The position numbers were made by a program, and so were the translations under genes. Under the pieces are notes generated by a model. That model was not told the DNA's origin and ran no database searches. It saw only the letters and a program-made list of their open reading frames with translations. Positions 8,822 to 45,645 of a DNA stretch of 64,000 nt are shown here, in pieces (position 1 is the first letter of the stretch; each line of letters opens with the position of its first letter). The stretch spans positions 328,005-392,004 of the forward strand of contig CAVTEW010000001.1 in NCBI GenBank assembly GCA_963733955.1. The letters run 5' to 3'. The DNA comes from an uncultured Acidobacteriota bacterium (lineage in GTDB: Bacteria > Acidobacteriota > Thermoanaerobaculia > UBA5066 > Gp7-AA6).

Positions 8822-9475
8822 TCACTTCCTCAGCAGCTTGAAGGCGTGGCTCCAGGTCCCCGTGCGGATGCCGTAGAGCACCCAGAGGATGCACATCGGC
8901 TCGAGCAGACGCGCGCCCTCGATGCCTCCGATGTCGATCGAGGGCCACCCGAACGACGTGAGGATCTCGGCCACGGTCTTCCTGGCCGCGGCGTCGTTGC
9001 CGCAGAAGAGCATGTCCGGCGGCCCGCCGGGAAATTGCGGGCGGAACATGAACGCGTTGCCCACGATGTTGAAAGCCTTCACGACGCGCGCCCCGGGAAG
9101 CCAGCGCTGCACCTGCTCGCCGCCGGAGTCGACGTGGCCCAGCGCCAGGGAGGGCGGGGCCCCTTCCTTGTAGACGAGGGGATTGGTCGCGTCGATGACG
9201 ATCTTGCCCGCGAGATTTTCGGGGCCGGCCAGCCGCAGCGCGTTCTCCGTTCCGCTCCAGAGCGTCGCCAGCACGGCCACGTCGGCGAACCGCGCGGCGT
9301 CGGCGAAGGTCCCCCCGGACGCCTTCGCGCCCGCGCCGGCGACCCAGGCGGCGACTTTCTCGTTCCTGGCGTCGCGCGCGCCCATCTTGACCTCGTGCCC
9401 GAGCGCCGCGAACGCCGAGCCCAGCGCCTTTCCCACGTCTCCCGATCCGAGAATGCCGATCTTCATCTTGTCCAT
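8822..9475 (-). CDS. NADP oxidoreductase, F420-dependent-type (NpdG/ProC-like Rossmann protein).
   Basis: MKIGILGSGDVGKALG dinucleotide-binding motif at the N-terminus. Length ~217 aa, typical of the NADP_oxidored_F420 family. Confidence 0.65.
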   Translation of the reverse strand: MDKMKIGILGSGDVGKALGSAFAALGHEVKMGARDARNEKVAAWVAGAGAKASGGTFADAARFADVAVLATLWSGTENALRLAGPENLAGKIVIDATNPLVYKEGAPPSLALGHVDSGGEQVQRWLPGARVVKAFNIVGNAFMFRPQFPGGPPDMLFCGNDAAARKTVAEILTSFGWPSIDIGGIEGARLLEPMCILWVLYGIRTGTWSHAFKLLRK

Positions 9476-26587: not shown

Positions 26588-26802
26588 AGATTCCTCCGCG
26601 CTCCGATTCTATGGCCCCGCCGCGGGAGCCCCCGCAGGAGCCGCCGGCGAGGCGGGAGCCGCATACGCGCTCCGGCCCATCCTCGATTCAGGAAAACACG
26701 AGGGCACATCCGCCGCGCCGGCGCCGCGCCGCGGGCTCCGGGAATAAAACCCCGGCCCGCGGAAATCGTTATGTGAGGCAGGAGTCGTCTGGAGTTGAAA
26801 TC

Positions 26803-28896
26803 ATGGAAGTCCTGAGCCGTTCGATTCCCCGCCCGGTGCCCTCCCGCGAGGAGAGGCTGGGCCTGGTCCTCTCCGCGATCGCGCGGACGATGGCCGAGAG
26901 CCTGGAGCTCAAGGACATCTTCGCGCGCGTCGCCGAGGCCACCCGACAGGTCCTGCCGTTCGAAACCATGGGAGTCAGCGTGGTCCACGACCCCTCGACC
27001 CCGTTCGAAAACGTGGACGACGTCGCGTTCTCGGCGTACGCGGTCGCGGGCAACGCCACGGTCGAGGAGATCGGGCAGTACCGGAGGTCCGACGTTTCGC
27101 CCGGTGTGCGCCTGACCGAGTTCGGAAAAGTGTCGCGTTACGCCGACGTCTCGGCGGTGCTCGATCCGGCGTTCCTTCTCGACCGCCGGATCCAAAGCCT
27201 CGATTGCCGGTCCCTCATGGCCAGCCTCCTTCCGGCGGCGCGCCCGCTCGGCACGATCTGGTTTGCCTCGTCGCAGGCCGGAGCCTTCGATCGAGAGGAC
27301 GAGGCCGCGGTCCTCGCCATCGCGGACCTCGTCGCCATCGCGCTCCAGCACGACCAGCTTTTCCGGCAGGAGCGGGACCGGCGGCGCAGGAGCGAGGCGC
27401 TGGAGGCGCTGCTGCCGACGCTGTCGAAGGCGCTGGACATCCGGGACGTCTTCGATCAGCTTTCCGACGCCATCGGAGAGATCCTGCCGCACGACCGGCT
27501 GGCGCTGGGCCTCTTCTCCGAGGACCGCAAGACGGTGCGGGTCCACGCCTACACCGGCGAGCGCGTGCCCGATCTCCCGGAGACCATCTCCGTCGACGGC
27601 GATCCGGCCACCGACGCGGACTGGACCTTCTTCCTCGTCCGGGACCTGCGGCAGGAGCCCGGGTGCTGCGGCGGCAAGTACGAGACCATGAAACAGGACG
27701 GGATGCGGTCGCTTCTGCGCGTCCCGGTGCGCCTCAACGGGGAGATCGTGGGGGGCCTGAATTTCCTCTCCCGGACGGTCGGACAGTACCGCGAAGAGGA
27801 CGCCGACATCGCGCGCCGGATCGCCGATCAGGTCGCCCTCGTGCTCTCGCACGAAAAGCTGGCCGAGGAGGCGCGGCTGGCCGCGGCGGCGCGGGAAGAG
27901 GCGCAGCGGCTGGAGAGTCGCCTGGCCGCCCTCTCCGAGCAGCTGGCGTCCTACATGGGCGACCCGCGGAGAATCATCGGGAAGTCGAAGAGCTGGCGCG
28001 AGGTGCTCGACCTCGTCTCCAAGGTCGCGCCGACGGAGACGACCGTGCTCCTGACCGGCGAGTCCGGCACCGGAAAAGAAGTCGTGGCGCGCGCGGTCCA
28101 TGCCGCCTCGCCGCGCTCGGACAAGCCCTTTCTGGCCATCAACTGCGCCGCGCTTCCCGAGCAGCTCCTGGAATCCGAGCTCTTCGGATACGAGCGCGGC
28201 GCGTTCACCGGCGCTCTGCAATCCCGCGCCGGGAAGATCGAGCAGGCCGCCGGAGGCGTGCTCTTCCTGGACGAAGTCGCCGAGATGTCTCCGGCCGTCC
28301 AGGCCAAGTTCCTGCGCGTGCTCCAGGAGCGCGAGTTCCAGAGGCTGGGCGGCTCGCGCGTGCAGAAGGCGGACGTCCGGGTCATCGCGGCGACCAACCG
28401 CGATCTCTCCGCCGCGCTCGCGCGCGGAGACTTTCGCGAGGACCTCTACTACCGCCTGAGCGTCTTCGGAATCGCGCTGCCTCCGCTGCGTGAGAGGAAG
28501 GACGACATCCTGCCGCTGGCGGAGGCCTTCGCCGAGGAGATCGGGAAGACGGTCAGCCGGCCCTGCGCGGGCATTTCCCGGGACGCCGGGGCGGCCCTGC
28601 TCGCCTACTCCTGGCCCGGGAACGTGCGGGAGCTGCGCAACGCGATCGAGCGGGCCATCATCCTCTGCGACGGCGGCCTGATCACCGCCGAGCACCTGCC
28701 CGCGCCGAAATCGGGAAACGGCAAGAGCGCCGGGCCGCCGGCGCCGCCGCCCGATCAGAACCTCTCAGACGTCGAGCGCAGCCTCGTGGAAAACGCCTTG
28801 AAGGAGGCGCGGAACAACAAGGCCCTGGCCGCCCGGCGCCTGGGCATCACCCGTTCGCAGCTCTACTCGCGCATCCAGAAATACAGCATCACCTGA
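26803..28896 (+). CDS. Sigma-54-dependent transcriptional activator with two N-terminal GAF domains, an AAA+ sigma-54 interaction domain and a C-terminal Fis-type HTH.
   Basis: Central domain motifs: [15 protein letters not shown] (Walker A), GAFTGA, and [15 protein letters not shown]-like context. C-terminus ends [20 protein letters not shown] (HTH_8). Confidence 0.85.
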
Positions 28897-28935: not shown

Positions 28936-30351
28936 TCAGTGGAGATGCGCGGAGGGGTTTCCGGGCGGCAGGGCCGCGAAGGCGGGATGGTCGGGTTTGC
29001 CGCGCGTCAGGATGATCGCGTAGAGAAACGGCGCGAAGCTCGTGCCCTTCCGGCCGTTGATCGCGACGATGGGCGTTCCGTCGGAATCGAAGTGGGCCGC
29101 CGCGGCGATGTCCTGCTCGAGCGCCTCTCGGACCCTGGGGGAGGCGAAGCAGGAGTCCATCTGGTCCCGGGACAGGAACCGCGAGGCGATCGACATCGCC
29201 GCGTTTCCCGTCAGGCCCTCCTGCTTCTCGAAGAGAGCCGCGGCGAGGTCCGGCTCCTTGCCGGTCGGCTCGGCGCAGATCCGCAGCCTGGCGGCGACGC
29301 AGCGCACGTCGTCCCCCTCCTTGCCCGGCTGCAGGAGGGAATTACAGCGGCCGTCCAGCGGGAACTGCCGGGCGTCGACGCTGTAGCTGCCGGGCGGGAC
29401 GCTCTCGCGCAGCGTGTGGAGCGTCTGGTTCAGGCTCGCGCAGTGCTCGCAGAGGATGTCGGTGAACTCGGTGATCCGCACCGGCGCCATCTCCGCGCCG
29501 ACGAGCGCGCGCGGCGGAGGCAGGGGCTGCGGAGCCGACGCGCGGTAGATCGCCAGCGAGTCCGCGAGGGTCTGTTTCATCTGGGGGTCCAGAGACTGGA
29601 CGAGGTCGGTGAGGGCCTTGTCCCGGTCGGGGTACCCCGTCCCGGTGGAGGCTCCGTCCGCGGGGGCCTGCGAATCGGAGGAATCGGAAGGCCGGGCGGC
29701 CGTCTCCACGGCGCGGCGTCCGGCCTCTTCGGTGGACCTGGGCGTCGAGAGACCCGGATAGAGGAGGAGCAGAAACGCGGCGCCGGCGACGACGCCGGCC
29801 AGGACCGCCGCCTGCGGCCAGGGCCCGAGCCCGGCAGGACGCCAGGGTCGAAGGGCGACGACGGCGTAGGCCGCGACGAGAACGTCCATTCCGAGGCAGC
29901 CGAGGCAGACCGCGCCGGCGGCGAAGCTCGCCGCGAGCATCACCGCGGCGACGACAACGCCCGCGAGCGCGGTGAGCCGGACGGCCGAAAGGATCCGCAC
30001 CGCGGGCCTTGCCTGCGCGGCGCGCAGGAGTCCGGCCAGCGCGAGCGCGAAGGCCGCCGCGCTCCACACCAGCCCCCAGCCGGCGACGGGAAGCCCGGTG
30101 AGCCGCTGGATCGCGGACGCGAACGCGCCGTTCCAGACCGCCGAGCAATCGAGCTTGCCTTCGGCCGCGCAGAACGACCCTGCGCCCGAGCGCAGCAGCA
30201 CGAGCTCCATCCAGAGAAACACCGACCAGAGAGCGCAAAGGGCGCCCAGGACCACGAGCTTCGTCCAGGCCGAGGCGTCGATCGTGGCGACGGCTTCGGC
30301 TGAGCGGGCGTCCACCTCCGGTTGTTTCTTTTTCTTCTCCAAGCGGCTCAT
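28936..30351 (-). CDS. VKOR (vitamin K epoxide reductase) membrane domain fused to a periplasmic DsbA-like thioredoxin domain; a disulfide-bond-forming protein.
   Basis: N-terminal half has 4-5 TM segments with a CxxC in a helix (AVCLGCLGMD), typical of VKOR. C-terminal half has a thioredoxin-type CxxC (ITEFTDILCEHCASL) and DsbA-like length. Confidence 0.7.
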   Translation of the reverse strand: MSRLEKKKKQPEVDARSAEAVATIDASAWTKLVVLGALCALWSVFLWMELVLLRSGAGSFCAAEGKLDCSAVWNGAFASAIQRLTGLPVAGWGLVWSAAAFALALAGLLRAAQARPAVRILSAVRLTALAGVVVAAVMLAASFAAGAVCLGCLGMDVLVAAYAVVALRPWRPAGLGPWPQAAVLAGVVAGAAFLLLLYPGLSTPRSTEEAGRRAVETAARPSDSSDSQAPADGASTGTGYPDRDKALTDLVQSLDPQMKQTLADSLAIYRASAPQPLPPPRALVGAEMAPVRITEFTDILCEHCASLNQTLHTLRESVPPGSYSVDARQFPLDGRCNSLLQPGKEGDDVRCVAARLRICAEPTGKEPDLAAALFEKQEGLTGNAAMSIASRFLSRDQMDSCFASPRVREALEQDIAAAAHFDSDGTPIVAINGRKGTSFAPFLYAIILTRGKPDHPAFAALPPGNPSAHLH

Positions 30352-30624
30352 TCTGGCACGGCCGGGGACGCGGGTCCGCGACCCGGGCTCCCGCCCCGGC
30401 GAGTGCCGATTTCTCATCACACTGTCGAGAAACCCGCAGACACAACCTCCCCGGTCGGCCGGCGGGAGCACACGACTCGGGAGCGCAGGCCTCTCATTGC
30501 AGGAGCTTTCCCCGCTTTCCGCGCGCCCGGGCCGCCGTGGCACGAAACGTGGGATTGCCGACTGCCGGCGGCGGCGGTCGATTTGGAGACTCGCCGTTCG
30601 TCCTACTCAAGGAGAGCGACGCCG

Positions 30625-30915
30625 ATGTCTCAACGATGCGTGGAAATGTTGCTGGGAAAGATCCTGACGGACGAGGATTTTCGGCGGTCCTTTTTTTCTT
30701 CACGGGCGTTGCCCGATCGGACTCCCAATTTCGAGGTCGCCGCGTCCCAGGGCCTGGAGCTGACGCCGGTCGAGCGCAGCGCGCTGTCGGCGTTGAAGCG
30801 CCGCCGGTTCGACCTGATCGCCCAGACGCTCGATCCCCGCATCGCGCGGTCCAACGTCTCCTCGCGGGAGACGCCGGCGTCCTCCGCGCGGTGCGAAACC
30901 AAGGACTATTCATGA
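30625..30915 (+). CDS. Small protein (96 aa) translationally coupled to the downstream tolC. The N-terminal 60 aa resemble leader-like small proteins of the LTDExFRxxFF type (Franean1_4349-like, from memory).
   Basis: AAGGAGAG RBS 9 nt before ATG 30625. Translation MSQRCVEMLLGKILTDEDFRRSFFSSRALPDRTPNFEVAASQGLELTPVERSALSALKRRRFDLIAQTLDPRIA. Its TGA stop overlaps the tolC ATG (ttcATGAaa at 30912-30915). Confidence 0.5.
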   Translation: MSQRCVEMLLGKILTDEDFRRSFFSSRALPDRTPNFEVAASQGLELTPVERSALSALKRRRFDLIAQTLDPRIARSNVSSRETPASSARCETKDYS

Positions 30916-32510
30916 AATGGCTTTCGGCTTCTTCGATGCTTCTGGCCGGCGCAATTCTCTCCGCGGCCGAGCCCGCGCCGCGGCCGCTGGCGCTGTCCCT
31001 CGCGGACGCCACCCGGCGGGCCCTCCAGCGCAACACCAGCCTCGCGGTCGAGCGCGAGAACGTCGTCCAGGCGGACTCCGGTGTAACCAGCGCGCGGGGC
31101 GCCTATGACGTTCTCTGGAGCGCGAACTTCGCGTGGGAGAAGAACACCGATCCGGTCAACTCGATCTTCTCGGGAGCGCCGGCGGGACTGCTCGCTCCGG
31201 ACAACCAGAGCGTCGAGGCCTCGACCGGCCTCTCGCAGCTTCTGCCCACGGGGGGATCGGTCTCGCTCTTCACCAACTGGGGCCGCGCGACGACCAACGG
31301 AGTCTTCACGATTCTGTCTCCGGCCTACGACACCGGCGTGGGCGTGTCGTTCGCGCAGCCGCTCCTTCGGAATCTCCGCGTGGATCCCGCGCGCGAGGCG
31401 ATCCGGGTCGCCGCGGCGGTCCGCAGCGCTTCGCGGGCGCGCTTGGCGCGGACGGTCTCCGAGACGGTCGCGGTGGTGGACACCGCATACTGGAGCCTGG
31501 TCGCCGCGCGGCGGGACGTCGTCTCCCTGGAGAGCTCCGTCGAGCTGGCCGGCCGCCAGCTCTCCGAGACGAAGACCCGGGCCGAGGCCGGCACGCTGGC
31601 CCGGACGGACGTCGCCCAGCCCACGGCGGAGCTCGAGCGGCGCAAGGGCGACCTCGCCCTGGCGCGCCGGCGGGTGGAAGAGGCCGAGAACGCGCTGAAG
31701 CTGCTGGTCCTGGGCGACCCGAGCGATCCGGATTGGGCCGCGGACCTCGTGCCGGGCGACGCTGCCGAGACGGACGTGCAGAAGCCGAGCCTCTCCGACT
31801 CCCTGGCCGCGGGGCTGGCCCGGCGTCCGGAGATCGCGGAGGCCCGCGCCCAACGCGAGCGCGCCCGGGTCCAGGTGGAGGGACGCCGGAGCGACCTCCT
31901 GCCGCGCCTCGACGTCGTCGCGTCCTACCAGCGCCGCGGGCTCGCCGGAGGCGTGAACCCGGACGCCGTGGGCTTCACCGGGGAGCCTGTCGTCGCGCCG
32001 GCGCCACTGTCCGGAGGGGCCGGACGCTCCTACGGGACGATCGGCGAGAACCGATTCCCCGACGCGTCGGCGGGCCTGGCCTTTTCGTTTCCGCTGGGGA
32101 ACCGCACGGCGAAGGCGAATCTCGCGGCGGCCAGGTCGCGGGTCGCGCAGACCTCCTACGGAATCACCGCCGCACAGCAGCAGGTCGGCGCCGAAGTGCG
32201 CAACGCGGTCTTCGCTCTGGAGACGGCCGTGCAGCGCATCGCGGCCGCCCGCGCCGCGCGCGCGGCCGCGGAGACGCAGCTCTCCTCGGAAGAGGAGCGA
32301 TTTCAGGCGGGGCTCTCGACGAATTTCCTGGTTTTGACGCGCCAGAACGATTTGACCAACGCCCGGGTCACGGAGACCTCGGCGCTGACCGACTACCGCA
32401 AGGCCGACACCGAGCTCGACCAGGCCGAGGGGGTCCTGCTCGAGCGACGCGGCATCACGATCGACGATTCGGGGAGGAGCAACGCTTCGGGTTCCGGAGG
32501 TGTTCGATGA
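30912..32510 (+). CDS. TolC-family outer membrane efflux protein.
   Basis: Signal peptide MKWLSASSMLLAGAILSAAEP. Two tandem OEP repeats (LSLADATRRALQRN..., ...LSDSLAAGLARRPEIAEARAQRERA...). Length ~530 aa. Confidence 0.85.
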   Translation: MKWLSASSMLLAGAILSAAEPAPRPLALSLADATRRALQRNTSLAVERENVVQADSGVTSARGAYDVLWSANFAWEKNTDPVNSIFSGAPAGLLAPDNQSVEASTGLSQLLPTGGSVSLFTNWGRATTNGVFTILSPAYDTGVGVSFAQPLLRNLRVDPAREAIRVAAAVRSASRARLARTVSETVAVVDTAYWSLVAARRDVVSLESSVELAGRQLSETKTRAEAGTLARTDVAQPTAELERRKGDLALARRRVEEAENALKLLVLGDPSDPDWAADLVPGDAAETDVQKPSLSDSLAAGLARRPEIAEARAQRERARVQVEGRRSDLLPRLDVVASYQRRGLAGGVNPDAVGFTGEPVVAPAPLSGGAGRSYGTIGENRFPDASAGLAFSFPLGNRTAKANLAAARSRVAQTSYGITAAQQQVGAEVRNAVFALETAVQRIAAARAARAAAETQLSSEEERFQAGLSTNFLVLTRQNDLTNARVTETSALTDYRKADTELDQAEGVLLERRGITIDDSGRSNASGSGGVR

Positions 32511-32529
32511 AGGGGGAGGTTTCTCTGTC

Positions 32530-33681
32530 ATGAAGAAACGGATGATTCTCATGTTGATCGCGGTGGCCGTCTTCCTCACGGCCGTCGGCGCGGTGAAGAC
32601 CGTGCAGGTGCGGGCGGCCATCGCGCACTACAAGTCTTTTCAGCCGCCGCCCGAGGCGGTGACCACGATCGTGGCCCGCCGGGAAGAGTGGCCGGCGAGC
32701 TTCTCCGCCATCGGCACGGTGGCCGCCGTCCACGGTGTCACGGTCAGCGCGGACCTGCCGGGGGTGGTCGACCGGATCCACTTCGAGTCGGGTGTGTTCG
32801 TCCGCGAGGGCACCGTCCTCGTCGAGCTCGACACCCGCCAGGAGCGGGCGCAGCTCGCCGCCGCGATCGCGGCGCAGAAGCTGGCGCGCCTGAACTTCGA
32901 CCGGCTCTCCGGGCTTCGCGACAAGGGAGTCATCTCCGAGTCGGACTACGACAAGGCCGCGGCCGAGCAGACCGAGGGCGAGGCCAAGGTCGGCGAGATC
33001 CGGGCCACGATCGCGCGCAAGACCATCCGCGCTCCCTTTTCCGGGGTCCTGGGAATCCGCCAGATCAACCTCGGGCAGTACCTTGCCGGAGGCGCCGCGA
33101 TCGTGCCGCTGCAGTCTCTCGATCCGATCTACGTGAACTTTTCACTGCCGCAGCAGGACGTCGGCCGCCTTCAGATCGGCGCCGCGGTCCGCGTGAGCAC
33201 GGACGCTTCGCCGGGGGACGCTCCCGCGGCGGCCGGCCGGGCCGAGCGCGCCGGGAAGATCACCGCCGTCGATTCCGTCGTCAACGAAGAGACCCGGAAC
33301 GTTCAGGTCCAGGCGACGCTGGCCAACCCGGAGCAGAAACTCAAGCCCGGAATGTTCGTACAGGCCCAGGTCCTCCTGCCGGCGTCCTCCGCGGTCGTCT
33401 CGCTCCCCGCCTCGGCGATCAACTACGCGCCCTACGGCGACTCCGTCTTCGTCGTCGCGGACCTGAAGGCCCGCGACGGGAAGGCCTACCGCGGCGTGCG
33501 CCAGCAGTTCGTGAAGCTCGGCCCCGCCCGCGGCGATCAGGTCGCGGTGACCTCCGGCGTCCAGGCGGGCGAAGAGGTCGTGACGTCGGGGGTCTTCAAG
33601 CTGCGCAACGGCGCCGCCGTCCAGATCAATAACAAGGTCCAGCCGGCGGACAACCCGGCTCCCAGGCCCGAGGATTCCTAA
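32530..33681 (+). CDS. Efflux RND transporter periplasmic adaptor subunit (HlyD/MFP family).
   Basis: N-terminal TM anchor, coiled-coil hairpin, and beta-barrel/MP domain motifs (IRAPFSGVLGIRQINLGQYL...). It lies between tolC and the RND permease. Confidence 0.85.
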   Translation: MKKRMILMLIAVAVFLTAVGAVKTVQVRAAIAHYKSFQPPPEAVTTIVARREEWPASFSAIGTVAAVHGVTVSADLPGVVDRIHFESGVFVREGTVLVELDTRQERAQLAAAIAAQKLARLNFDRLSGLRDKGVISESDYDKAAAEQTEGEAKVGEIRATIARKTIRAPFSGVLGIRQINLGQYLAGGAAIVPLQSLDPIYVNFSLPQQDVGRLQIGAAVRVSTDASPGDAPAAAGRAERAGKITAVDSVVNEETRNVQVQATLANPEQKLKPGMFVQAQVLLPASSAVVSLPASAINYAPYGDSVFVVADLKARDGKAYRGVRQQFVKLGPARGDQVAVTSGVQAGEEVVTSGVFKLRNGAAVQINNKVQPADNPAPRPEDS

Positions 33682-33682
33682 G

Positions 33683-36600
33683 ATGAAATTCACCGATCTG
33701 TTCATCCGACGGCCCGTCCTGGCCATCGTGGTCAACCTGGTGATCCTGATCGCCGGGGTGCAGGCGATCCGCTCGCTCTCGGTGCGCCAGTTTCCGCGCA
33801 GCGACATCGCCGTGGTCAAGGTCACGACCAGCTACGTCGGCGCCAACGCCGATCTGGTCAGAGGGTTCATCACCACGCCGCTCGAGCGCGTGATCGCCAG
33901 CGCCGACGGCATCGACTACATGGAATCCTCGAGCGCCCAGGGCGTCTCGACGATCACCGTGCACTTGAAGCTGAACTACGACACCAACGCCGCGCTGACC
34001 CAGGTCCAGGCCAAGGTGGCCCAGGTCCGCAACGACCTGCCCCCCGAGGCCGAGGCGCCGGTGATCGAGCTGGAGACCGCGGACACGCAGTTCGCCTCGA
34101 TGTACATCGGGTTTTCGTCGCCCGAGCTCGACCAGAACCAGATCACCGATTACCTGACGCGCGTCGTGCAGCCCAAGCTCTCGGCGATCTCCGGAGTGCA
34201 GCGCGCCGACATTCTCGGCAGCCGCACCTTCGCCATGCGCGTCTGGTTGAAGCCCGACAAGATGGCCGCGCTCCAGATCTCGCCGTCGCAGGTGCGTGAC
34301 GCGCTGGCGAACAACAACTATCTGGCCGCCCTGGGCCGGACCAAGGGCTCCATGGTCTCGGTCAACCTGGTCGCCAACACGAACCTCAAGACGGCCGAGG
34401 AGTTCAAGAACCTGGTGGTCAAGGAGGACAAGGGCGTCATCGTCCGGCTGGGCGAGATCGCCGACGTCGTGCTCGGCGCGGAGGACTACGAGTCCGACGT
34501 GCGCTTCAACGGCCAGACCGCGACTTTCATGGGCGTCTGGGTCCTGCCGACGGCCAACTCGCTCGACGTGATCCGCAAGGTGCGCGCGGCGCTGCCGGAG
34601 ATCCAGTCCCAGCTTCCCGCCGGGATGAAAGTCGGGATTCCCTACGACTCGACCGGATACATCCAGGACGCCATCAACGAAGTCTTGAAGACGCTGTCCA
34701 TCACTCTTCTGATCGTCATCGTCGTGATCTTCCTCTTCCTGGGGTCCTTCCGCTCGGTGCTCATCCCGATCATCGCGATCCCCGTGTCGCTGGTGGGCGC
34801 GGTCTTCCTGATGCTGGTGGCCGGCTTCACCATCAATCTGCTGACGCTTCTGGGCATCGTGCTCTCGGTCGGCCTGGTGGTCGACGACGCCATCATCATC
34901 GTCGAGAACGTGGAGCGGCACCTCCATCTGGGGGAGACGCCGTACCAGGCGGCGATCCGCGCCGCCCGCGAGCTGCGCGGCCCGATCATCGCCATGACCA
35001 TCACGCTCGCCGCGGTGTACGCCCCCATCGGCATCCAGGGGGGCCTGACCGGCGCGCTCTTCCGCGAGTTCGCCTTCACTCTGGCCGGCGCCGTGATCAT
35101 TTCCGGCGTCGTGGCGCTGACGCTCTCGCCGATGATGGCCTCCAAGCTCCTGCGCGCGGGAGACACCGAGCGCGGGTTCGCCGGCTGGGTCAACCGGCGC
35201 TTCGAGGGCGTCCGGAGCACCTACGGGCGCCTTCTGACCGGCACGCTCCAGTACCGGCCGGTCGTCTTCACGCTGTGGGCGATCGTCGCCCTCCTGATCG
35301 TTCCGTTTTACATGTTTTCGCAGAAGGAGCTCGCGCCCAACGAGGATCAGAGCGTGGTGTTCGGAATCGTGCAGGCCGCGCCCAACGCCACCATCGACCA
35401 GACCAAGCTCTTCGCCTCGCAGGTCCACGACGCCTACCGCTCGTTCCCCGAGGCCGAGAGCATCTTCCAGATCACGTCCCCGACCGGCGGGTTCGGCGGC
35501 ATGGTCACCAAGCCCTGGAGCCAGCGCAAGAAGACGACCGAACAGCTCCAGGTCGAAGCGGCGGCCAAGGTCTCGAAGATCCCCGGCGTGCGCGTGATCT
35601 CGCTCATTCCGCCGGCCCTTCCTGGAGGCGGCGATTTCCCGGTCGACTTCGTCATCGCCTCGACCGCGGAGCCGCAGCGCCTGACCGAGTTCGCCAACCA
35701 GCTCGTGCAGAAGGCCTTCGCCAGCGGCCTCTTCATGTTCGCCGACTCGGATCTGAAGTTCGACCAGCCGCAGGCCGAGGTCGTCTTCGATCGCGACAAG
35801 GTCCGCGCCCAGGGCGTCGACCTCTCGCAGGCGGGTCGGGATCTCTCGACCATGCTCGGAGGCGACTACGTCAACCGCTTCTCGATCCAGGGCCGGAGCT
35901 ACAAGGTCATCCCCCAGGTCAAGCGCGCGGAGCGTCTGACGCCGCAGCAGCTCGAGCAGATCTACGTCAAGGGCGCGGGCGACAAGCTCGTGCCTCTGTC
36001 GACCTTCGCCTCGTTGAAGACCACGACCGAGCCGCGGGAGTTGAAGCGCTTCCAGCAGTTGAACGCGGTCCGGATCCAGGGCGTCATCCCGCCGGGCGTG
36101 TCGCTCGACAAGGCGCTCAAGTTCCTGGAAGACGAAGCGGCCAAGTCTCTGCCCAAGGGCTTCACCGTCGACTACGCGGGCGAATCGCGGCAGCTGCGGA
36201 CCGAAGGAGGCAAGTTCCTCGGCACGTTCCTGCTGTCGGGCATCCTCATCTACCTGGTGCTCGCCGCCCAGTTCGAGAGCTTCCGCGATCCGTTCATCGT
36301 CCTGGCCGGCTCGGTCCCGCTGGCGCTCTCGGGGTCCCTGCTCTTCTCCTTCCTGGGCTTCACGACCCTGAACATCTACAGCCAGGTCGGTCTGATCACG
36401 CTGGTCGGCCTGGTGGCCAAGAACGGCATCCTGATCGTCGAGTTCGCCAACAACCTCCAGGAGGAAGGCAAGAGCAAGATCGAGGCGGTCATCGAGGCCG
36501 CGACGACCCGGCTGCGCCCGATCCTGATGACCACCGCCGCGACGGTCATGGGGCACTTCCCGCTCGTGTTCGCCACCGGCCCGGGGGCCGGCGCGCGCAA

Positions 36601-36766
36601 CTCGATCGGCATGATGCTGGTGACCGGCATGATCATCGGGACGGCCTTCACGCTCTTCGTCGTGCCGTCGATCTACGTGCTGGTGGCGCGGACGCGCGCG
36701 CGGTCGGCGTCGGGCGGCCTGGAGGAGTCCGAGCCGGAGGCCCCCGCGCTGGAAGCCGCCGTCTGA
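33683..36766 (+). CDS. RND superfamily efflux permease (AcrB/MdtB/HAE1-like), 12 TM segments.
   Basis: 1027-aa ORF with the two large periplasmic loops and conserved TM4/TM10 regions (GLVVDDAIIIVENVERH..., AKNGILIVEFANNL...). Start is 2 nt after the adaptor stop. Confidence 0.9.
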   Translation: MKFTDLFIRRPVLAIVVNLVILIAGVQAIRSLSVRQFPRSDIAVVKVTTSYVGANADLVRGFITTPLERVIASADGIDYMESSSAQGVSTITVHLKLNYDTNAALTQVQAKVAQVRNDLPPEAEAPVIELETADTQFASMYIGFSSPELDQNQITDYLTRVVQPKLSAISGVQRADILGSRTFAMRVWLKPDKMAALQISPSQVRDALANNNYLAALGRTKGSMVSVNLVANTNLKTAEEFKNLVVKEDKGVIVRLGEIADVVLGAEDYESDVRFNGQTATFMGVWVLPTANSLDVIRKVRAALPEIQSQLPAGMKVGIPYDSTGYIQDAINEVLKTLSITLLIVIVVIFLFLGSFRSVLIPIIAIPVSLVGAVFLMLVAGFTINLLTLLGIVLSVGLVVDDAIIIVENVERHLHLGETPYQAAIRAARELRGPIIAMTITLAAVYAPIGIQGGLTGALFREFAFTLAGAVIISGVVALTLSPMMASKLLRAGDTERGFAGWVNRRFEGVRSTYGRLLTGTLQYRPVVFTLWAIVALLIVPFYMFSQKELAPNEDQSVVFGIVQAAPNATIDQTKLFASQVHDAYRSFPEAESIFQITSPTGGFGGMVTKPWSQRKKTTEQLQVEAAAKVSKIPGVRVISLIPPALPGGGDFPVDFVIASTAEPQRLTEFANQLVQKAFASGLFMFADSDLKFDQPQAEVVFDRDKVRAQGVDLSQAGRDLSTMLGGDYVNRFSIQGRSYKVIPQVKRAERLTPQQLEQIYVKGAGDKLVPLSTFASLKTTTEPRELKRFQQLNAVRIQGVIPPGVSLDKALKFLEDEAAKSLPKGFTVDYAGESRQLRTEGGKFLGTFLLSGILIYLVLAAQFESFRDPFIVLAGSVPLALSGSLLFSFLGFTTLNIYSQVGLITLVGLVAKNGILIVEFANNLQEEGKSKIEAVIEAATTRLRPILMTTAATVMGHFPLVFATGPGAGARNSIGMMLVTGMIIGTAFTLFVVPSIYVLVARTRARSASGGLEESEPEAPALEAAV

Positions 36767-39007: not shown

Positions 39008-39211
39008 TCAGCCAATCCTGGTGCCGGGGCAGATGAGCAGGGTACGGGTGCAACCGACGCTGCAGAAATCGCCGCACGTATCACCTGTACCGGCGCCTCT
39101 GCCCGCCTTGACGTTCTTCCCCTGGCTCTTCGAATCCAGATCACGGATCGTTTCCTTCTTCAGCTTGAGCGGCTTGGCCCCCTGGCGACCCGTGGACTTC
39201 TTCGCGACCAT
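39008..39211 (-). CDS. Candidate orphan RiPP precursor peptide (67 aa). Leader resembles the double-glycine KLKLNKETIxxL...KGG type (GG-Bacteroidales/TIGR04149-like, from memory), with a 4-Cys core.
   Basis: Perfect RBS GGCAAGGAGGAAGAC-ATG. Translation MVAKKSTGRQGAKPLKLKKETIRDLDSKSQGKNVKAG|RGAGTGDTCGDFCSVGCTRTLLICPGTRIG. The leader shares KxTxR and KNVKxG with the ORF at 43275. Confidence 0.5.
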   Translation of the reverse strand: MVAKKSTGRQGAKPLKLKKETIRDLDSKSQGKNVKAGRGAGTGDTCGDFCSVGCTRTLLICPGTRIG

Positions 39212-39393
39212 GTCTTCCTCCTTGCCTGCGACCTGTAGAGCAAACCGCGGACCACCGGAGCCGAGGCCTGATTCCATTGAGCTTGCGCGTTCCGGCCTTT
39301 CGCGCTGCGGCGCAATTTGAGCCCATAAGGAGTCTCATCCTGCGACAACGCCCAGGACATCGCCGATCCTCGCGCCGGCGGTCCGCGCGGCGA

Positions 39394-40164
39394 TCAGCGC
39401 GGGTCGTAGGGCACCGCGGGCGCGATGCGGCCGGACCGGCAGGCGCGCTCGGCCGCGTGCGAGAAGACGTAAACGCCGGCCGGATCGCTCTGGCCGTGGT
39501 TGCCCCAGGCGCCTTCCTGGGACACGATCGCGATCGCGTTGTTGAAGAGATAGACGTTGTACCAGCCGTCCGAGTCGAAGCTCGCCCAACGGTTTCCCGG
39601 GTTGAGCGTGCCGCACTCCGCTGGACCGTAGGGCCGGTGCGTCGTCGAGACGCAGATCTCCTTCTTCTCGAGGTCGGCGCGATGGACGCAGACGAAATCG
39701 CCGACGAAATCCTCCGAGTCGTGGCAGGGGTAGGGCGTCACGCCGGAGGTGGGCCAGGACTTCACAGGCGCCAATCGGGAGAGGACTCCTTTCAAGTCCG
39801 GCGACGGCTCGGGGCTCTCCTCCATCGAGGGAAGAGCGGCGAAGTCCGCCGTTCGTACCCAGCCGTATTTCCGGCTGCCGCGCGCTCCGAGATAGACCGC
39901 GCACGCGAGCGGGTCCGGAGCCGCGTTCGGGCTCGGACGGCTCGCTTCCACCAGGTCGCCGAGCACGACGAAGCTCCTGAGCCTCTGGGGAGCGGCCGAT
40001 TCTTGCGCCGGCCGGGAATAGAAGTAGGCCCGCGCTTCCCGGGCCACCATCGGTTCGAAGAGATTTTCATCCTGCGTCTTGTCGCAGGGTTGTTCGGCTC
40101 GCGATGGAGCGGCCGTGCCAACCACCACCAGAAACGCCAGCCACAGGCGCCGTCGCGTTCTCAT
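39394..40164 (-). CDS. Secreted Cys-containing hypothetical protein.
   Basis: Signal peptide MRTRRRLWLAFLVVVGTAAPSRA. 8 Cys residues. No domain recognised. Confidence 0.45.
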   Translation of the reverse strand: MRTRRRLWLAFLVVVGTAAPSRAEQPCDKTQDENLFEPMVAREARAYFYSRPAQESAAPQRLRSFVVLGDLVEASRPSPNAAPDPLACAVYLGARGSRKYGWVRTADFAALPSMEESPEPSPDLKGVLSRLAPVKSWPTSGVTPYPCHDSEDFVGDFVCVHRADLEKKEICVSTTHRPYGPAECGTLNPGNRWASFDSDGWYNVYLFNNAIAIVSQEGAWGNHGQSDPAGVYVFSHAAERACRSGRIAPAVPYDPR

Positions 40165-40530
40165 GGCCGCATCCTGTCGCGGACATGTGGCGATCGCGTG
40201 GCATTTCGAAGACAAGATGGGGGCGCGGCCGTCGGGCTCTGCCGGGTCAGGTCTGCCCCCGGAACGTCAGGGATTCGCGGCGGCCGGCGCTTTCGACTCG
40301 ACAGCCTTCCCGCGGGGCGGCGCATGCTCGACGTACGTGTCGAACCAGCGCAGCTCCTCGTACGCCAGCTGCTCGTTGGACTCCATCGCCGCGCACCTGT
40401 GCGGTTCGTGCGCGGCGGTCCGCTGCCTGCCGCCATCGCCTCCCAGGTACGACGGACCCTCATCCATGTCCGCCAAAACCGTCTCCGCGCGGGATGTAGG
40501 CTATAAACGATCCAACGGGAGGAGTGAACG

Positions 40531-43890: not shown

Positions 43891-45645
43891 TCAGCGGCAG
43901 CCGTTCCTCCGGCGACACTGGTTGTAGATCTGGACGCAGAAGCGCGTGCTCGAGGGATCGCCGTCCATGCAGCTGTCCCGCTCGTCGCGGCAGGCCTTGC
44001 ACTCGGGCGGGGGAGGCGGCGGCGCGGGAATCTCGATCGGGTCGACCCGGGCAAAGTACACCGACAGGCCGGGCACGTCGGGAAGGCCCGCGGGCGCGGC
44101 CGCCGAGGCCCATGCGACGTAGGCGCGCCCTTGCGCGCAGGCGATGCCGTTGTAGTCGCCGAACTTGCCGCGGCCCTTGTCGTCCTTGGGAGGCAGGCAT
44201 GAGAGGCCGGAGGGGCAGCCTCCGTGAGAGAGATCGCATCGGGGAGTGCTCGCCCGAGGCGCAGGGCAGCCGCCGGTGCCGGCCTGGGCCCAGAACGGGC
44301 ACGGCAGGCAGAAGCCTGCGCGCTGCGGCTGCTGGGAACAGGCCGCGGCTTCCTCCTTGCCGCCGCCGCCAGGCCAGCCCGAATCGCACTGGCGATCGAT
44401 GGCGTCGGAGACCTCGACCTCGCCGAGGTCCGGTCCACCGACGAAGTACTCGGTGTTGTCGTTGTGGCTGCCGGTCCGGCTTCTGCGGTCGTACCAGCCC
44501 ACGAAGACCTTCCCCTGCGTCGCGCAGGCCCACGGATGGTAGCGTTCTCCCCGCGGTTCGAGGTTGACGACGCGCCGGCTGGGAAACTCCTCGTTTCGGG
44601 AGAGCGAAGTCACGTTGTCGGTCGACAGGAGCACCACGTCGTGGTTGCCCGGGCTCGTCTCGTCGGCGTAGGCGACGAAGACGCGGAGCGGGTCGTTCCC
44701 GTCGACGGCGACGGTCGGGCCCGCCAGGATGTTCCCGACGTTGCAGCGATCGAGTCCCGCGATGGTGTTGGAGCCCTCGCACTTGACGCCGGTGAAATGG
44801 CCGATGCGTGAGGGCGCGCTGCGCCCCGCCGAGTCCGTCCAGCGAGGCTGAAAGCCGAGATTGCAGGGACTGAACCGCTGCAGCAGGAGGTCGCCGTTCG
44901 TTCGGGCGGTCGCCGAGATGACGTAGACGAAGCCGTCCGGTCCCACGGTCGCTCGGGGATAGTCGCCGCGCCGCTGCGAAGGAGGCAGGTTTCTCTCCAC
45001 GCTCCGGCGAAGCCACGTCTTTCCGCCGTCGGCGGAGCAGCCGATCATGGAGAAGTAATCCGTGTCGTCCCGCTTGTTGCGCCAGGCGATGTAGATCTGA
45101 TCCTGGCCCGGCCTCCGGTCGCCGGCGAGGTGCGGTTGATCCGAGGTGCAGCGGCCGGCCGGGACGCACCGCGCGGGCCGCAGCGTCCGATTCTTCCCCA
45201 TCTTCCTGGCGGTGAAGAGGAACTTGTGTCCGTGCCGGGAGGAGGCGATGAGGCCGTCGGAGGCGCTTCCCATCGTGGCGAAATAGAATTTGCCCTTTCC
45301 CGTCCAGGCGAGCGATGGATCGCGTGACGAGTGCATTCCCTTCGGCAGGTCTTTGCCCTCGATCGGAACGAAGACCCCGGTCTCCCAGCGAAAGAGACGC
45401 TGCCGTGAGGGCGGGATGTCGAGGGCCCTCACGCCGTTGACGGCCAGCAGGATCTCGTTTCCGTCGCCCGAGACCGCCAGCTCGATCTCGCCCGGTCCCG
45501 GAACCACGAACCGGTGTTCGCTCGCCTCCAGGCTCATGTGAGTCTGCGCCGATGCGGAGAGCGCCAGCAGGACGAGCGCGACGCCGACCGCCGGCCTTGC
45601 GGATCTCGGGAACCGGGCCACATTCCGCCCTGGAAGGAAAGACAC
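43891..45645 (-). CDS. Secreted BNR/Asp-box repeat (sialidase-like beta-propeller) protein with a Cys-rich C-terminal region.
   Basis: Signal peptide ...VGVALVLLALSASAQT. BNR motif SADGGKTW. Propeller-like repeats. C-terminal ~120 aa contain many Cys (CLPCPFW...CKACRDERDSC...). Confidence 0.55.
   Translation of the reverse strand: MSFLPGRNVARFPRSARPAVGVALVLLALSASAQTHMSLEASEHRFVVPGPGEIELAVSGDGNEILLAVNGVRALDIPPSRQRLFRWETGVFVPIEGKDLPKGMHSSRDPSLAWTGKGKFYFATMGSASDGLIASSRHGHKFLFTARKMGKNRTLRPARCVPAGRCTSDQPHLAGDRRPGQDQIYIAWRNKRDDTDYFSMIGCSADGGKTWLRRSVERNLPPSQRRGDYPRATVGPDGFVYVISATARTNGDLLLQRFSPCNLGFQPRWTDSAGRSAPSRIGHFTGVKCEGSNTIAGLDRCNVGNILAGPTVAVDGNDPLRVFVAYADETSPGNHDVVLLSTDNVTSLSRNEEFPSRRVVNLEPRGERYHPWACATQGKVFVGWYDRRSRTGSHNDNTEYFVGGPDLGEVEVSDAIDRQCDSGWPGGGGKEEAAACSQQPQRAGFCLPCPFWAQAGTGGCPAPRASTPRCDLSHGGCPSGLSCLPPKDDKGRGKFGDYNGIACAQGRAYVAWASAAAPAGLPDVPGLSVYFARVDPIEIPAPPPPPPECKACRDERDSCMDGDPSSTRFCVQIYNQCRRRNGCR

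Follow-up and report, generated by a model that had tools for sequence, protein, structure and literature searches.

Results

A short gene with a conserved leader and a cysteine-rich core

The window, by which we mean the whole stretch of 64,000 nucleotides that was analysed, carries on its minus strand at 39008..39211 an open reading frame with an ATG start and 67 codons plus stop, which on the strength of its translation, its GC3, selection relative to an ortholog and its family we read as a precursor peptide gene, probably for a class I lanthipeptide prepeptide of the LanA type. The translation is identical, letter for letter, to the one from which the original prediction started, and the perfect Shine-Dalgarno sequence described there is indeed present: read from the sequence, AAGGAGGA (39216..39223, minus strand) ends 4 nt before the ATG, and AGGAGG-like sites also precede most paralogs. 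An alternative reading of 89 aa is possible from an ATG at 39277, but the 67-aa start is taken as correct because all homologs begin M-V/T-x-K-K.

As the window is 68% GC and its ORF listing is crowded with dozens of spurious overlapping frames, many of them similar in size to this one, a frame of 67 codons is by itself no proof of a gene. There is nevertheless only a negligible chance that this one arose by accident in GC-rich DNA, given its Shine-Dalgarno sequence, its codon bias, the selection acting on it and its hundreds of homologs. GC3 in the precursor frame is 0.78, consistent with the surrounding genes, and a scan of species-representative genomes recovered an ortholog of 93% identity, L002, from the Acidobacteriota MAG MFD06085.bin.1.160, where the neighbouring genes are the same. 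The two regions share 88-91% nucleotide identity, and the precursor genes within them differ by 12 synonymous changes and by 5 non-synonymous ones, most of them conservative, and by no indels, with all four cysteines kept (pN 0.033, pS 0.245, pN/pS ~0.13; binomial p = 7.7e-5 against neutrality). A protein search returned an entry identical to the window peptide (P0001) and seven short relatives, and a family profile made from a full-length alignment of 28 members, searched against 5.8 billion protein sequences, extended the family, at E ≤ 0.1, to 572 or more small proteins with lengths of about 48-89 aa. The window peptide has no name in the protein collection searched, the best 120 of the 572 family proteins are nameless or 'hypothetical protein' in their sources, and a literature search for the leader string found no papers. 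Because the GC3, the purifying selection relative to L002, the 572-member family and the combination of an invariant leader with diverging cores all agree, the gene is real and is under purifying selection.

The leader (residues 1-37, MVAKKSTGRQGAKPLKLKKETIRDLDSKSQGKNVKAG; 39101..39211, minus strand) contains a box, formed by L15, L17, K19 and L25, that fits LxLxKx5L residue for residue, and the LKLKKETIRDL stretch within it is invariant in the alignment. It ends in a double-glycine-type site, A36-G37 (VKAG); most relatives have VKGG, and VKAG or IKAG is found in the window peptide, L002, P0240 and the in-cluster paralogs L003_11745, L007c and L016_3409. The core that would be released (residues 38-67, RGAGTGDTCGDFCSVGCTRTLLICPGTRIG; 39011..39100, minus strand) is 30 residues long and contains 4 Cys, 6 Ser/Thr and 7 Gly. 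Across the homologs the N-terminal half is nearly invariant (M-V/T-x-K-K ... LKLKKETIRDL ... VKGG) and the C-terminal halves are rich in Cys, Ser and Thr; in the first eight homologs LKLKKETIRDL did not vary at all and the cores diverged in both length and sequence. Among 42 family members, the leaders are free of Cys (0% of residues) and the cores have 12.3% of it; Cys and Ser/Thr occur together in 40 of the 42 cores, and their numbers are often equal. The original prediction of a RiPP precursor with a double-glycine-type leader end and a Gly/Cys-rich core of 30 residues and four cysteines is thus borne out by the counts and by the pattern among relatives, whose leaders are conserved and whose Cys-rich cores are hypervariable.

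Three copies of the gene that stand alone (in the window, in L002 and as P0240, described below) share the core pattern GT-x-D-(T/S)-C-G-x-(F/Y)-C-S-(V/L)-G-C-x-R-T-x3-C, in which four Cys and four Ser/Thr are conserved. A peptide encoded within an enzyme cluster (L004, at 4627) has a core stretch, SVGC..TLL.C.GT, in common with the window peptide. A different kind of cargo is seen in L012 (892-1119) and L015 (2805-3041), where a leader of the form LKLKKETIRNL...VKGG is joined to a core without Cys, NEVIVAFEEGDPDKPI(I/V)VGSPWN; the L015 core scores above the Pfam cut-offs of Phage_base_V (25.5 vs 23.8 bits) and DUF6484 (29.4 vs 27.6 bits), so that a VgrG/gp5 OB-fold-like tail stands behind a lanthipeptide-type leader.

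The gene stands apart from any modification enzyme

A six-frame regular-expression scan found no leader-bearing ORF in the window other than the precursor, and tblastn searches found no homolog of LanB, LanC, EamA, HtrA, the C39-ABC exporter or the HlyD adaptor of the related clusters anywhere in its 64 kb. When the cluster activator was used as the query, the sole match was a generic GAF-domain sigma-54 activator at 26611-28896. We also scanned 22 other likely genes of the window against Pfam, choosing those nearest to the peptide and the largest elsewhere; these belong only to housekeeping or catabolic families, among them an RND efflux system, a VKOR-DsbA fusion, RibD_C and a kynurenine-pathway set, or, in three cases, to no Pfam family. 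That neither a maturase nor an exporter lies nearby therefore holds over the whole window as far as these searches reach, and since the gene is apart from any maturase, processing would have to occur in trans, as had been proposed.

Several neighbours deserve mention in their own right. Directly upstream of the peptide and on the same strand, 39394-40215 encodes a protein of 273 aa whose N-terminus resembles a signal peptide. L002 has it too (89% aa identity) and all other leader-family loci lack it; since it has no Pfam match and is not found alongside the leader family in other places, we treat it as an unrelated neighbour. The VKOR-DsbA/thioredoxin fusion protein (28936-30543, minus strand) adjoins the RND efflux operon, which consists of an OEP gene (30537-32510), an HlyD-type adaptor (32500-33681) and a 1027-aa RND pump (33683-36766). 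The fusion protein, the RND operon and the GAF-domain activator lie ~2-10 kb from the peptide and are probably unrelated to it. Farther away, 43891-45645 (minus strand) encodes a Cys-rich protein of 584 aa whose start resembles a signal peptide and which has no Pfam match.

The isolation of the gene is shared by the other copies with the same core type. Around L002, no LanB or LanC is found over 20 kb. P0240, which is 64% identical to the window peptide, stands alone at L020 in a different neighbourhood (amidase, DUF4833), with no LanB or LanC within 7-10 kb. At L020, 1.5 kb from P0240, three more small ORFs (8829-9407) have GG-type leader ends, VKGG, IKGG and VRGG; they lack the LKLKKET box and their cores are mostly Cys-free.

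The same leader occurs in LanB/LanC clusters

The sister MAG that holds L002 carries, on a second contig (L003), a cluster of peptides with the same leader: six on one strand and a seventh after LanB, together with two intact LanC genes, one EamA transporter gene and a full-length LanB of 1085 aa, the latter with Pfam matches to Lant_dehydr_N (8.5e-168) and Lant_dehydr_C (6e-68). A third LanC copy in L003 (5917-7187) is split over three reading frames, which points either to a pseudogene or to an error in the assembly of long reads. A cluster with the same layout, again with LanB and LanC, is present in a Thermoanaerobaculia MAG (L004). A metagenome scan with the leader-only alignment added 11 mostly short contigs, in which LanC directly follows the peptides in L006, L008, L011 and L013, and LanB follows them in L007. 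LanB homologs led to two longer contigs, L016 and L017, in which the gene order is EamA, a C39-ABC exporter, an HlyD adaptor, a sigma-54 activator, 3-8 leader peptides, LanC and LanB. Both enzymes thus lie beside the leader family in L003, L004, L016 and L017, and LanC does so in L018 as well. All loci of the leader family that could be traced to a named genome belong to Acidobacteriota.

The LanBC island of L003 and L004 lies between gltX (L003 2841-4274 and L004 2711-4135, minus strand) and htrA-hsp20-clpB (L003 16224-20182 and L004 12150-14751, both minus strand), and L016 and L017 have the same htrA side (13.3-17.9 kb). The LanB proteins of L003 and L004 are only ~60% identical, so that the site of the island looks conserved and its contents look to be turning over fast. 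The gltX gene encodes glutamyl-tRNA synthetase, which charges the tRNA used by LanB as co-substrate; its adjacency to the island may be functional or may be merely inherited gene order.

The original prediction also mentioned processing by a C39 peptidase, and Peptidase_C39 ABC exporters are in fact encoded in the related clusters of L016 (1-645) and L017 (1661-4771), where they have an N-terminal cyclic-nucleotide-binding domain (PF00027) and are followed by a PspF-like sigma-54 activator without a sensory domain. The adaptors of these two clusters are of the HlyD/AprE type. The window peptide has an A-G site, and as far as the available flanks extend, neither the window nor L003 nor L004 shows a C39-ABC exporter.

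The exporters and the GG-type site would also suit a double-glycine bacteriocin or signalling peptide of the ordinary, unmodified sort, whose only link to lanthipeptides is the leader used for export, and the wholly Cys-free peptides that bear this leader in L012 and L015 (L015b) could be cited in the same sense. We regard this as a very unlikely account of the window peptide, because four Cys and four Ser/Thr are held in register across three lineages, which is a signature of lanthionine substrates, and because the leader family adjoins LanB and LanC, not exporters alone.

Class assignment and the curated leader models

Since the enzymes that accompany the leader are LanB and LanC, the peptide is assigned to the class I lanthipeptide precursors. 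This is consistent with the LxLxKx5L leader motif described for class I LanAs of Bacteroidetes; many of those leaders have a Gly-Gly end, and a C39 protease gene is often found in their clusters (Walker et al., 2020; PMC7268733).

The window peptide itself is at a distance from all the curated models. It has no match in Pfam, and at E ≤ 10 none to NF038153 (lant_leader_L1a), NF038158 (L1b) or the NHLP and Nif11 leader models of NCBIfam. Its score with TIGR04363 (FxLD-family lanthipeptide) is 14.3 bits (E = 0.031) against a cut-off of 30, over residues 34-55 only. When ten paralogs were compared with the same models, NF038153, the class I lanthipeptide leader L1a, was the one approached most often and most closely, with sub-threshold scores of 8.6-17.6 bits in 7 of the 10 (cut-off 22 bits); NF038158 matched 2 of the 10 (cut-off 27 bits). 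The leader type has therefore already been described, and the branch to which the window peptide belongs is too divergent for the curated models.

The family named in the original prediction was a different one: the leader had been likened to that of TIGR04149, with maturation by a radical-SAM/SPASM enzyme, and a search against TIGR04149, NHLP and Nif11 had been proposed as the check. There is a superficial likeness of leaders, LKLxKETIxxL...GG, and one paralog in ten does match TIGR04149, at 11.2 bits against a cut-off of 25. The window peptide, however, shows no match to TIGR04149 at E ≤ 10 (cut-off 25 bits), nor to the other two. Among the ~45 leader peptides examined, moreover, none has a radical-SAM/SPASM gene beside it, and the neighbours are always LanC or LanB. 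The only Radical_SAM gene encountered, in L016, L017 and L019, adjoins QueC and lies beyond htrA-hsp20-clpB from the cluster, and for both reasons is read as unrelated to the peptides. A precursor of the TIGR04149 type whose radical-SAM/SPASM maturase is encoded elsewhere is accordingly hard to credit, and neither the family nor the maturase of the original prediction can be retained.

A shared putative sigma-54-type promoter

Upstream of the precursor gene lies a putative sigma-54-type -24/-12 promoter, TGGTCCGCGGTTTGCT (39239..39254, minus strand), which begins 43 nt upstream of the ATG and has, correctly spaced, the GG and GC that are invariant in the consensus TGGCAC-N5-TTGCW. It is the sole match to TGG-N8-TTGCT in the window, where 0.69 would be expected by chance, and L002 and L020 have kept it, roughly as far from their start codons. 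A somewhat wider motif, TGG-N8-TTGC[AT], likewise stands upstream of the first precursors in L003, L005, L016 and L017: over 384 kb of strand positions, 12 of its 26 matches fall just upstream of leader peptides, compared with 0.8 expected (p = 4e-12). A scan around the precursor gene found no sigma-70 promoter and no intrinsic terminator.

Two further elements accompany the promoter. The first, CTCAATGG (39274..39281, minus strand), lies about 20-27 nt upstream of the -24 box, forms nearly invariant columns in the promoter alignment and is also found in the promoters of in-cluster precursors. The second, TGTCGCAGGATGAGACT (39331..39347, minus strand), about 77-93 nt upstream of the -24 box (about 80-95 nt in the aligned promoters), was picked out by eye, as was its resemblance to TGTCGCAGAACGATACT at the same position in L017 and to TGT-N11-ACA elements in L005, L013 and L016; with low confidence, we propose it as a possible activator-binding site. 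Taken together, the common promoter motif, the shared elements and the activator encoded in L016 and L017 suggest that stand-alone and in-cluster precursors form one regulon.

Other lanthipeptide genes in the same genome

The original prediction called for a search of the genome for paralogous leaders, and these exist: the 861,091-bp contig from which the window is taken has at least three further family precursors on record, P0204, P0232 and P0248, all outside the window. The RibD_C protein of the window and the window peptide are recorded on a contig of this length, and the same length is on record for these three precursors and for P0251. P0232, P0248 and P0251 have exact protein matches on L018, an ENA contig of 39 kb. 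The layout of L018 is precursors, LanC with one frameshift, a 71-aa N-terminal remnant of LanB and unrelated genes; the remnant (2564-2779), which is P0251, comes directly after LanC and is followed by glyoxalase, YCII and RibD_C. It is through the protein identity between the 861-kb contig and L018 that a LanC can be placed among the precursors of this genome, and, judged from the same identities, the window's own genome holds a decayed lanthipeptide locus in which LanB has been deleted.

The claim that the window peptide is modified in trans has its main weakness in the intact LanB that it presumes for this genome. This weakness is also the ground for a different account, in which the genome has lost LanB and the window gene is either a decaying leftover or encodes a peptide that is exported unmodified by a C39 exporter, for example in disulfide-bonded form. 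The LanC-linked locus on the window's contig, as known through L018, keeps only the 71-aa remnant, with P0251 identical on both contigs; a close LanB ortholog was not found, as no LanB closer than 65-69% to the sister-genome enzyme is present in the protein database searched; and the frameshifted LanC copy in L003 indicates that such loci do decay. A search for 90%-identity clusters of the genes that flank the sister-genome cluster returned only singletons and so gave no pointer to the contig of this genome with the equivalent locus. We nonetheless think such a relic unlikely. Relative to L002 the gene has accumulated 12 synonymous changes against 5 that are mostly conservative, has no indels and has kept its four Cys, its start, Shine-Dalgarno sequence and sigma-54-type promoter are intact, and the same core type with the same promoter persists alone in a third lineage, L020. 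LanB, moreover, is common in such bacteria (1496 homologs at E ≤ 1e-50), and the best candidate, P0038, of 893 aa on a 3,226,042-bp contig, may be the enzyme of this genome.

Discussion

We consider it likely that the window ORF is a stand-alone precursor of the class I lanthipeptide type (LanA), with a 37-residue leader and a 30-residue core, encoded away from its enzymes. Several observations count against this assignment: the window peptide reaches no curated leader model, its cleavage site would be AG, not GG, the 64 kb of the window contain no LanB, LanC or exporter, the only lanthipeptide locus that could be traced to its contig (through L018) has a LanB remnant and, in L018, a frameshifted LanC, and the database holds no LanB closer than 65-69% to the sister-genome enzyme. 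The original prediction was, on this reading, right in kind, as the peptide appears to be a RiPP with a GG-type leader that would be processed in trans, and wrong in family, as the enzymes point to a class I lanthipeptide; it is therefore partly supported.

In LanB/LanC systems, LanB binds the leader, glutamylates Ser and Thr in a Glu-tRNA(Glu)-dependent reaction and eliminates glutamate, and LanC forms the thioether rings. From this established behaviour and from the content of the related clusters, a pathway for the window peptide can be proposed. Transcription would start at the sigma-54 promoter, driven by the PspF-like activator that is encoded in the cluster. A full-length LanB, which we infer to be encoded elsewhere in the genome, would bind the leader, glutamylate core Ser/Thr residues with Glu-tRNA(Glu) and eliminate glutamate to leave Dha and Dhb, to which LanC would add the Cys thiols, giving up to four (methyl)lanthionine rings. 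The C39-peptidase ABC exporter and its HlyD-type adaptor would then cut after VKAG and export the product. T42, T/S45, S52 and T57, which the three stand-alone copies have in common, pair in number with C46, C50, C54 and C61, although any particular ring pattern drawn from them, such as T42-C46, T45-C50, S52-C54 and T57-C61, would be a guess.

Prochlorosin-like precursors that lie far from their synthetase defeat neighbourhood-based mining, and a survey of lanthipeptides covered seven genes either side of each LanC-domain protein (PMC7268733). Because such tools look only a few genes away from the enzymes, stand-alone precursors like the one described here would escape them, and the shared sigma-54 promoter may serve as a sequence tag with which other dispersed precursors can be found. 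In the literature searched we found no characterised lanthipeptide product from Acidobacteriota, a soil phylum that has received little study, only predicted gene clusters. As its core type is kept in three lineages, the window peptide is a concrete candidate for co-expression with the LanB and LanC of the sister genome. The finding leaves the understanding of lanthipeptide biosynthesis unchanged; the points of modest interest are the conservation of stand-alone precursors, their common sigma-54 promoter and an uncharacterised acidobacterial branch of the leader family.

The closest known systems include the class I LanAs of Bacteroidetes (PMC7268733; NF038153 and NF038158), with which the window peptide shares the leader box L15-x-L17-x-K19-x5-L25, a double-glycine-type end and a Cys/Ser/Thr core; the separate LanB and LanC and the C39-peptidase ABC exporter of those systems are also present in the related clusters of its family. 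Unlike them, the family described here belongs to Acidobacteriota (Thermoanaerobaculia-like MAGs), scores below the curated cut-offs and has clusters that include an EamA transporter and a sigma-54 activator, and the window peptide has an AG site and a solitary gene, with at least 25 kb between it and any enzyme in both directions. The radical-SAM precursors of TIGR04149 (GG_sam_targ_CFB) have a similar leader, LKLxKETIxxL...GG, but the window family falls below the cut-off of that HMM and has no radical-SAM maturase.

The nisin-type class I systems (FNLD-box leader, NisB/NisC, NisP, NisT) use the same pair of enzymes as the window family, and by our own reading the FNLD box resembles the IRDLD of the window leader as a short hydrophobic/acidic box. 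Unlike nisin, the window family has another leader family, a GG-type cleavage site instead of one for a subtilisin, an exporter with an HlyD adaptor, and precursors that are numerous and dispersed.

A further parallel is with the prochlorosins of class II, where one ProcM serves many ProcA peptides and where, likewise, a conserved leader precedes hypervariable cores and some precursors are encoded far from the synthetase. The prochlorosins rely on a single LanM and a Nif11-type leader, whereas the window family has separate LanB and LanC and an unrelated leader. It is a tentative and still somewhat doubtful idea that Acidobacteriota have, in class I with LanB and LanC, an equivalent of the prochlorosin system, in which one set of enzymes would serve many fast-evolving precursors, some of them encoded at scattered sites on the chromosome, that share a leader and a single sigma-54 regulon with a cluster-encoded activator. 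The leader might also be reusable on cargo that is not lanthipeptide, such as the VgrG/gp5-like cores of L012 and L015, and the window peptide would then be a conserved, remotely encoded member of such a system.
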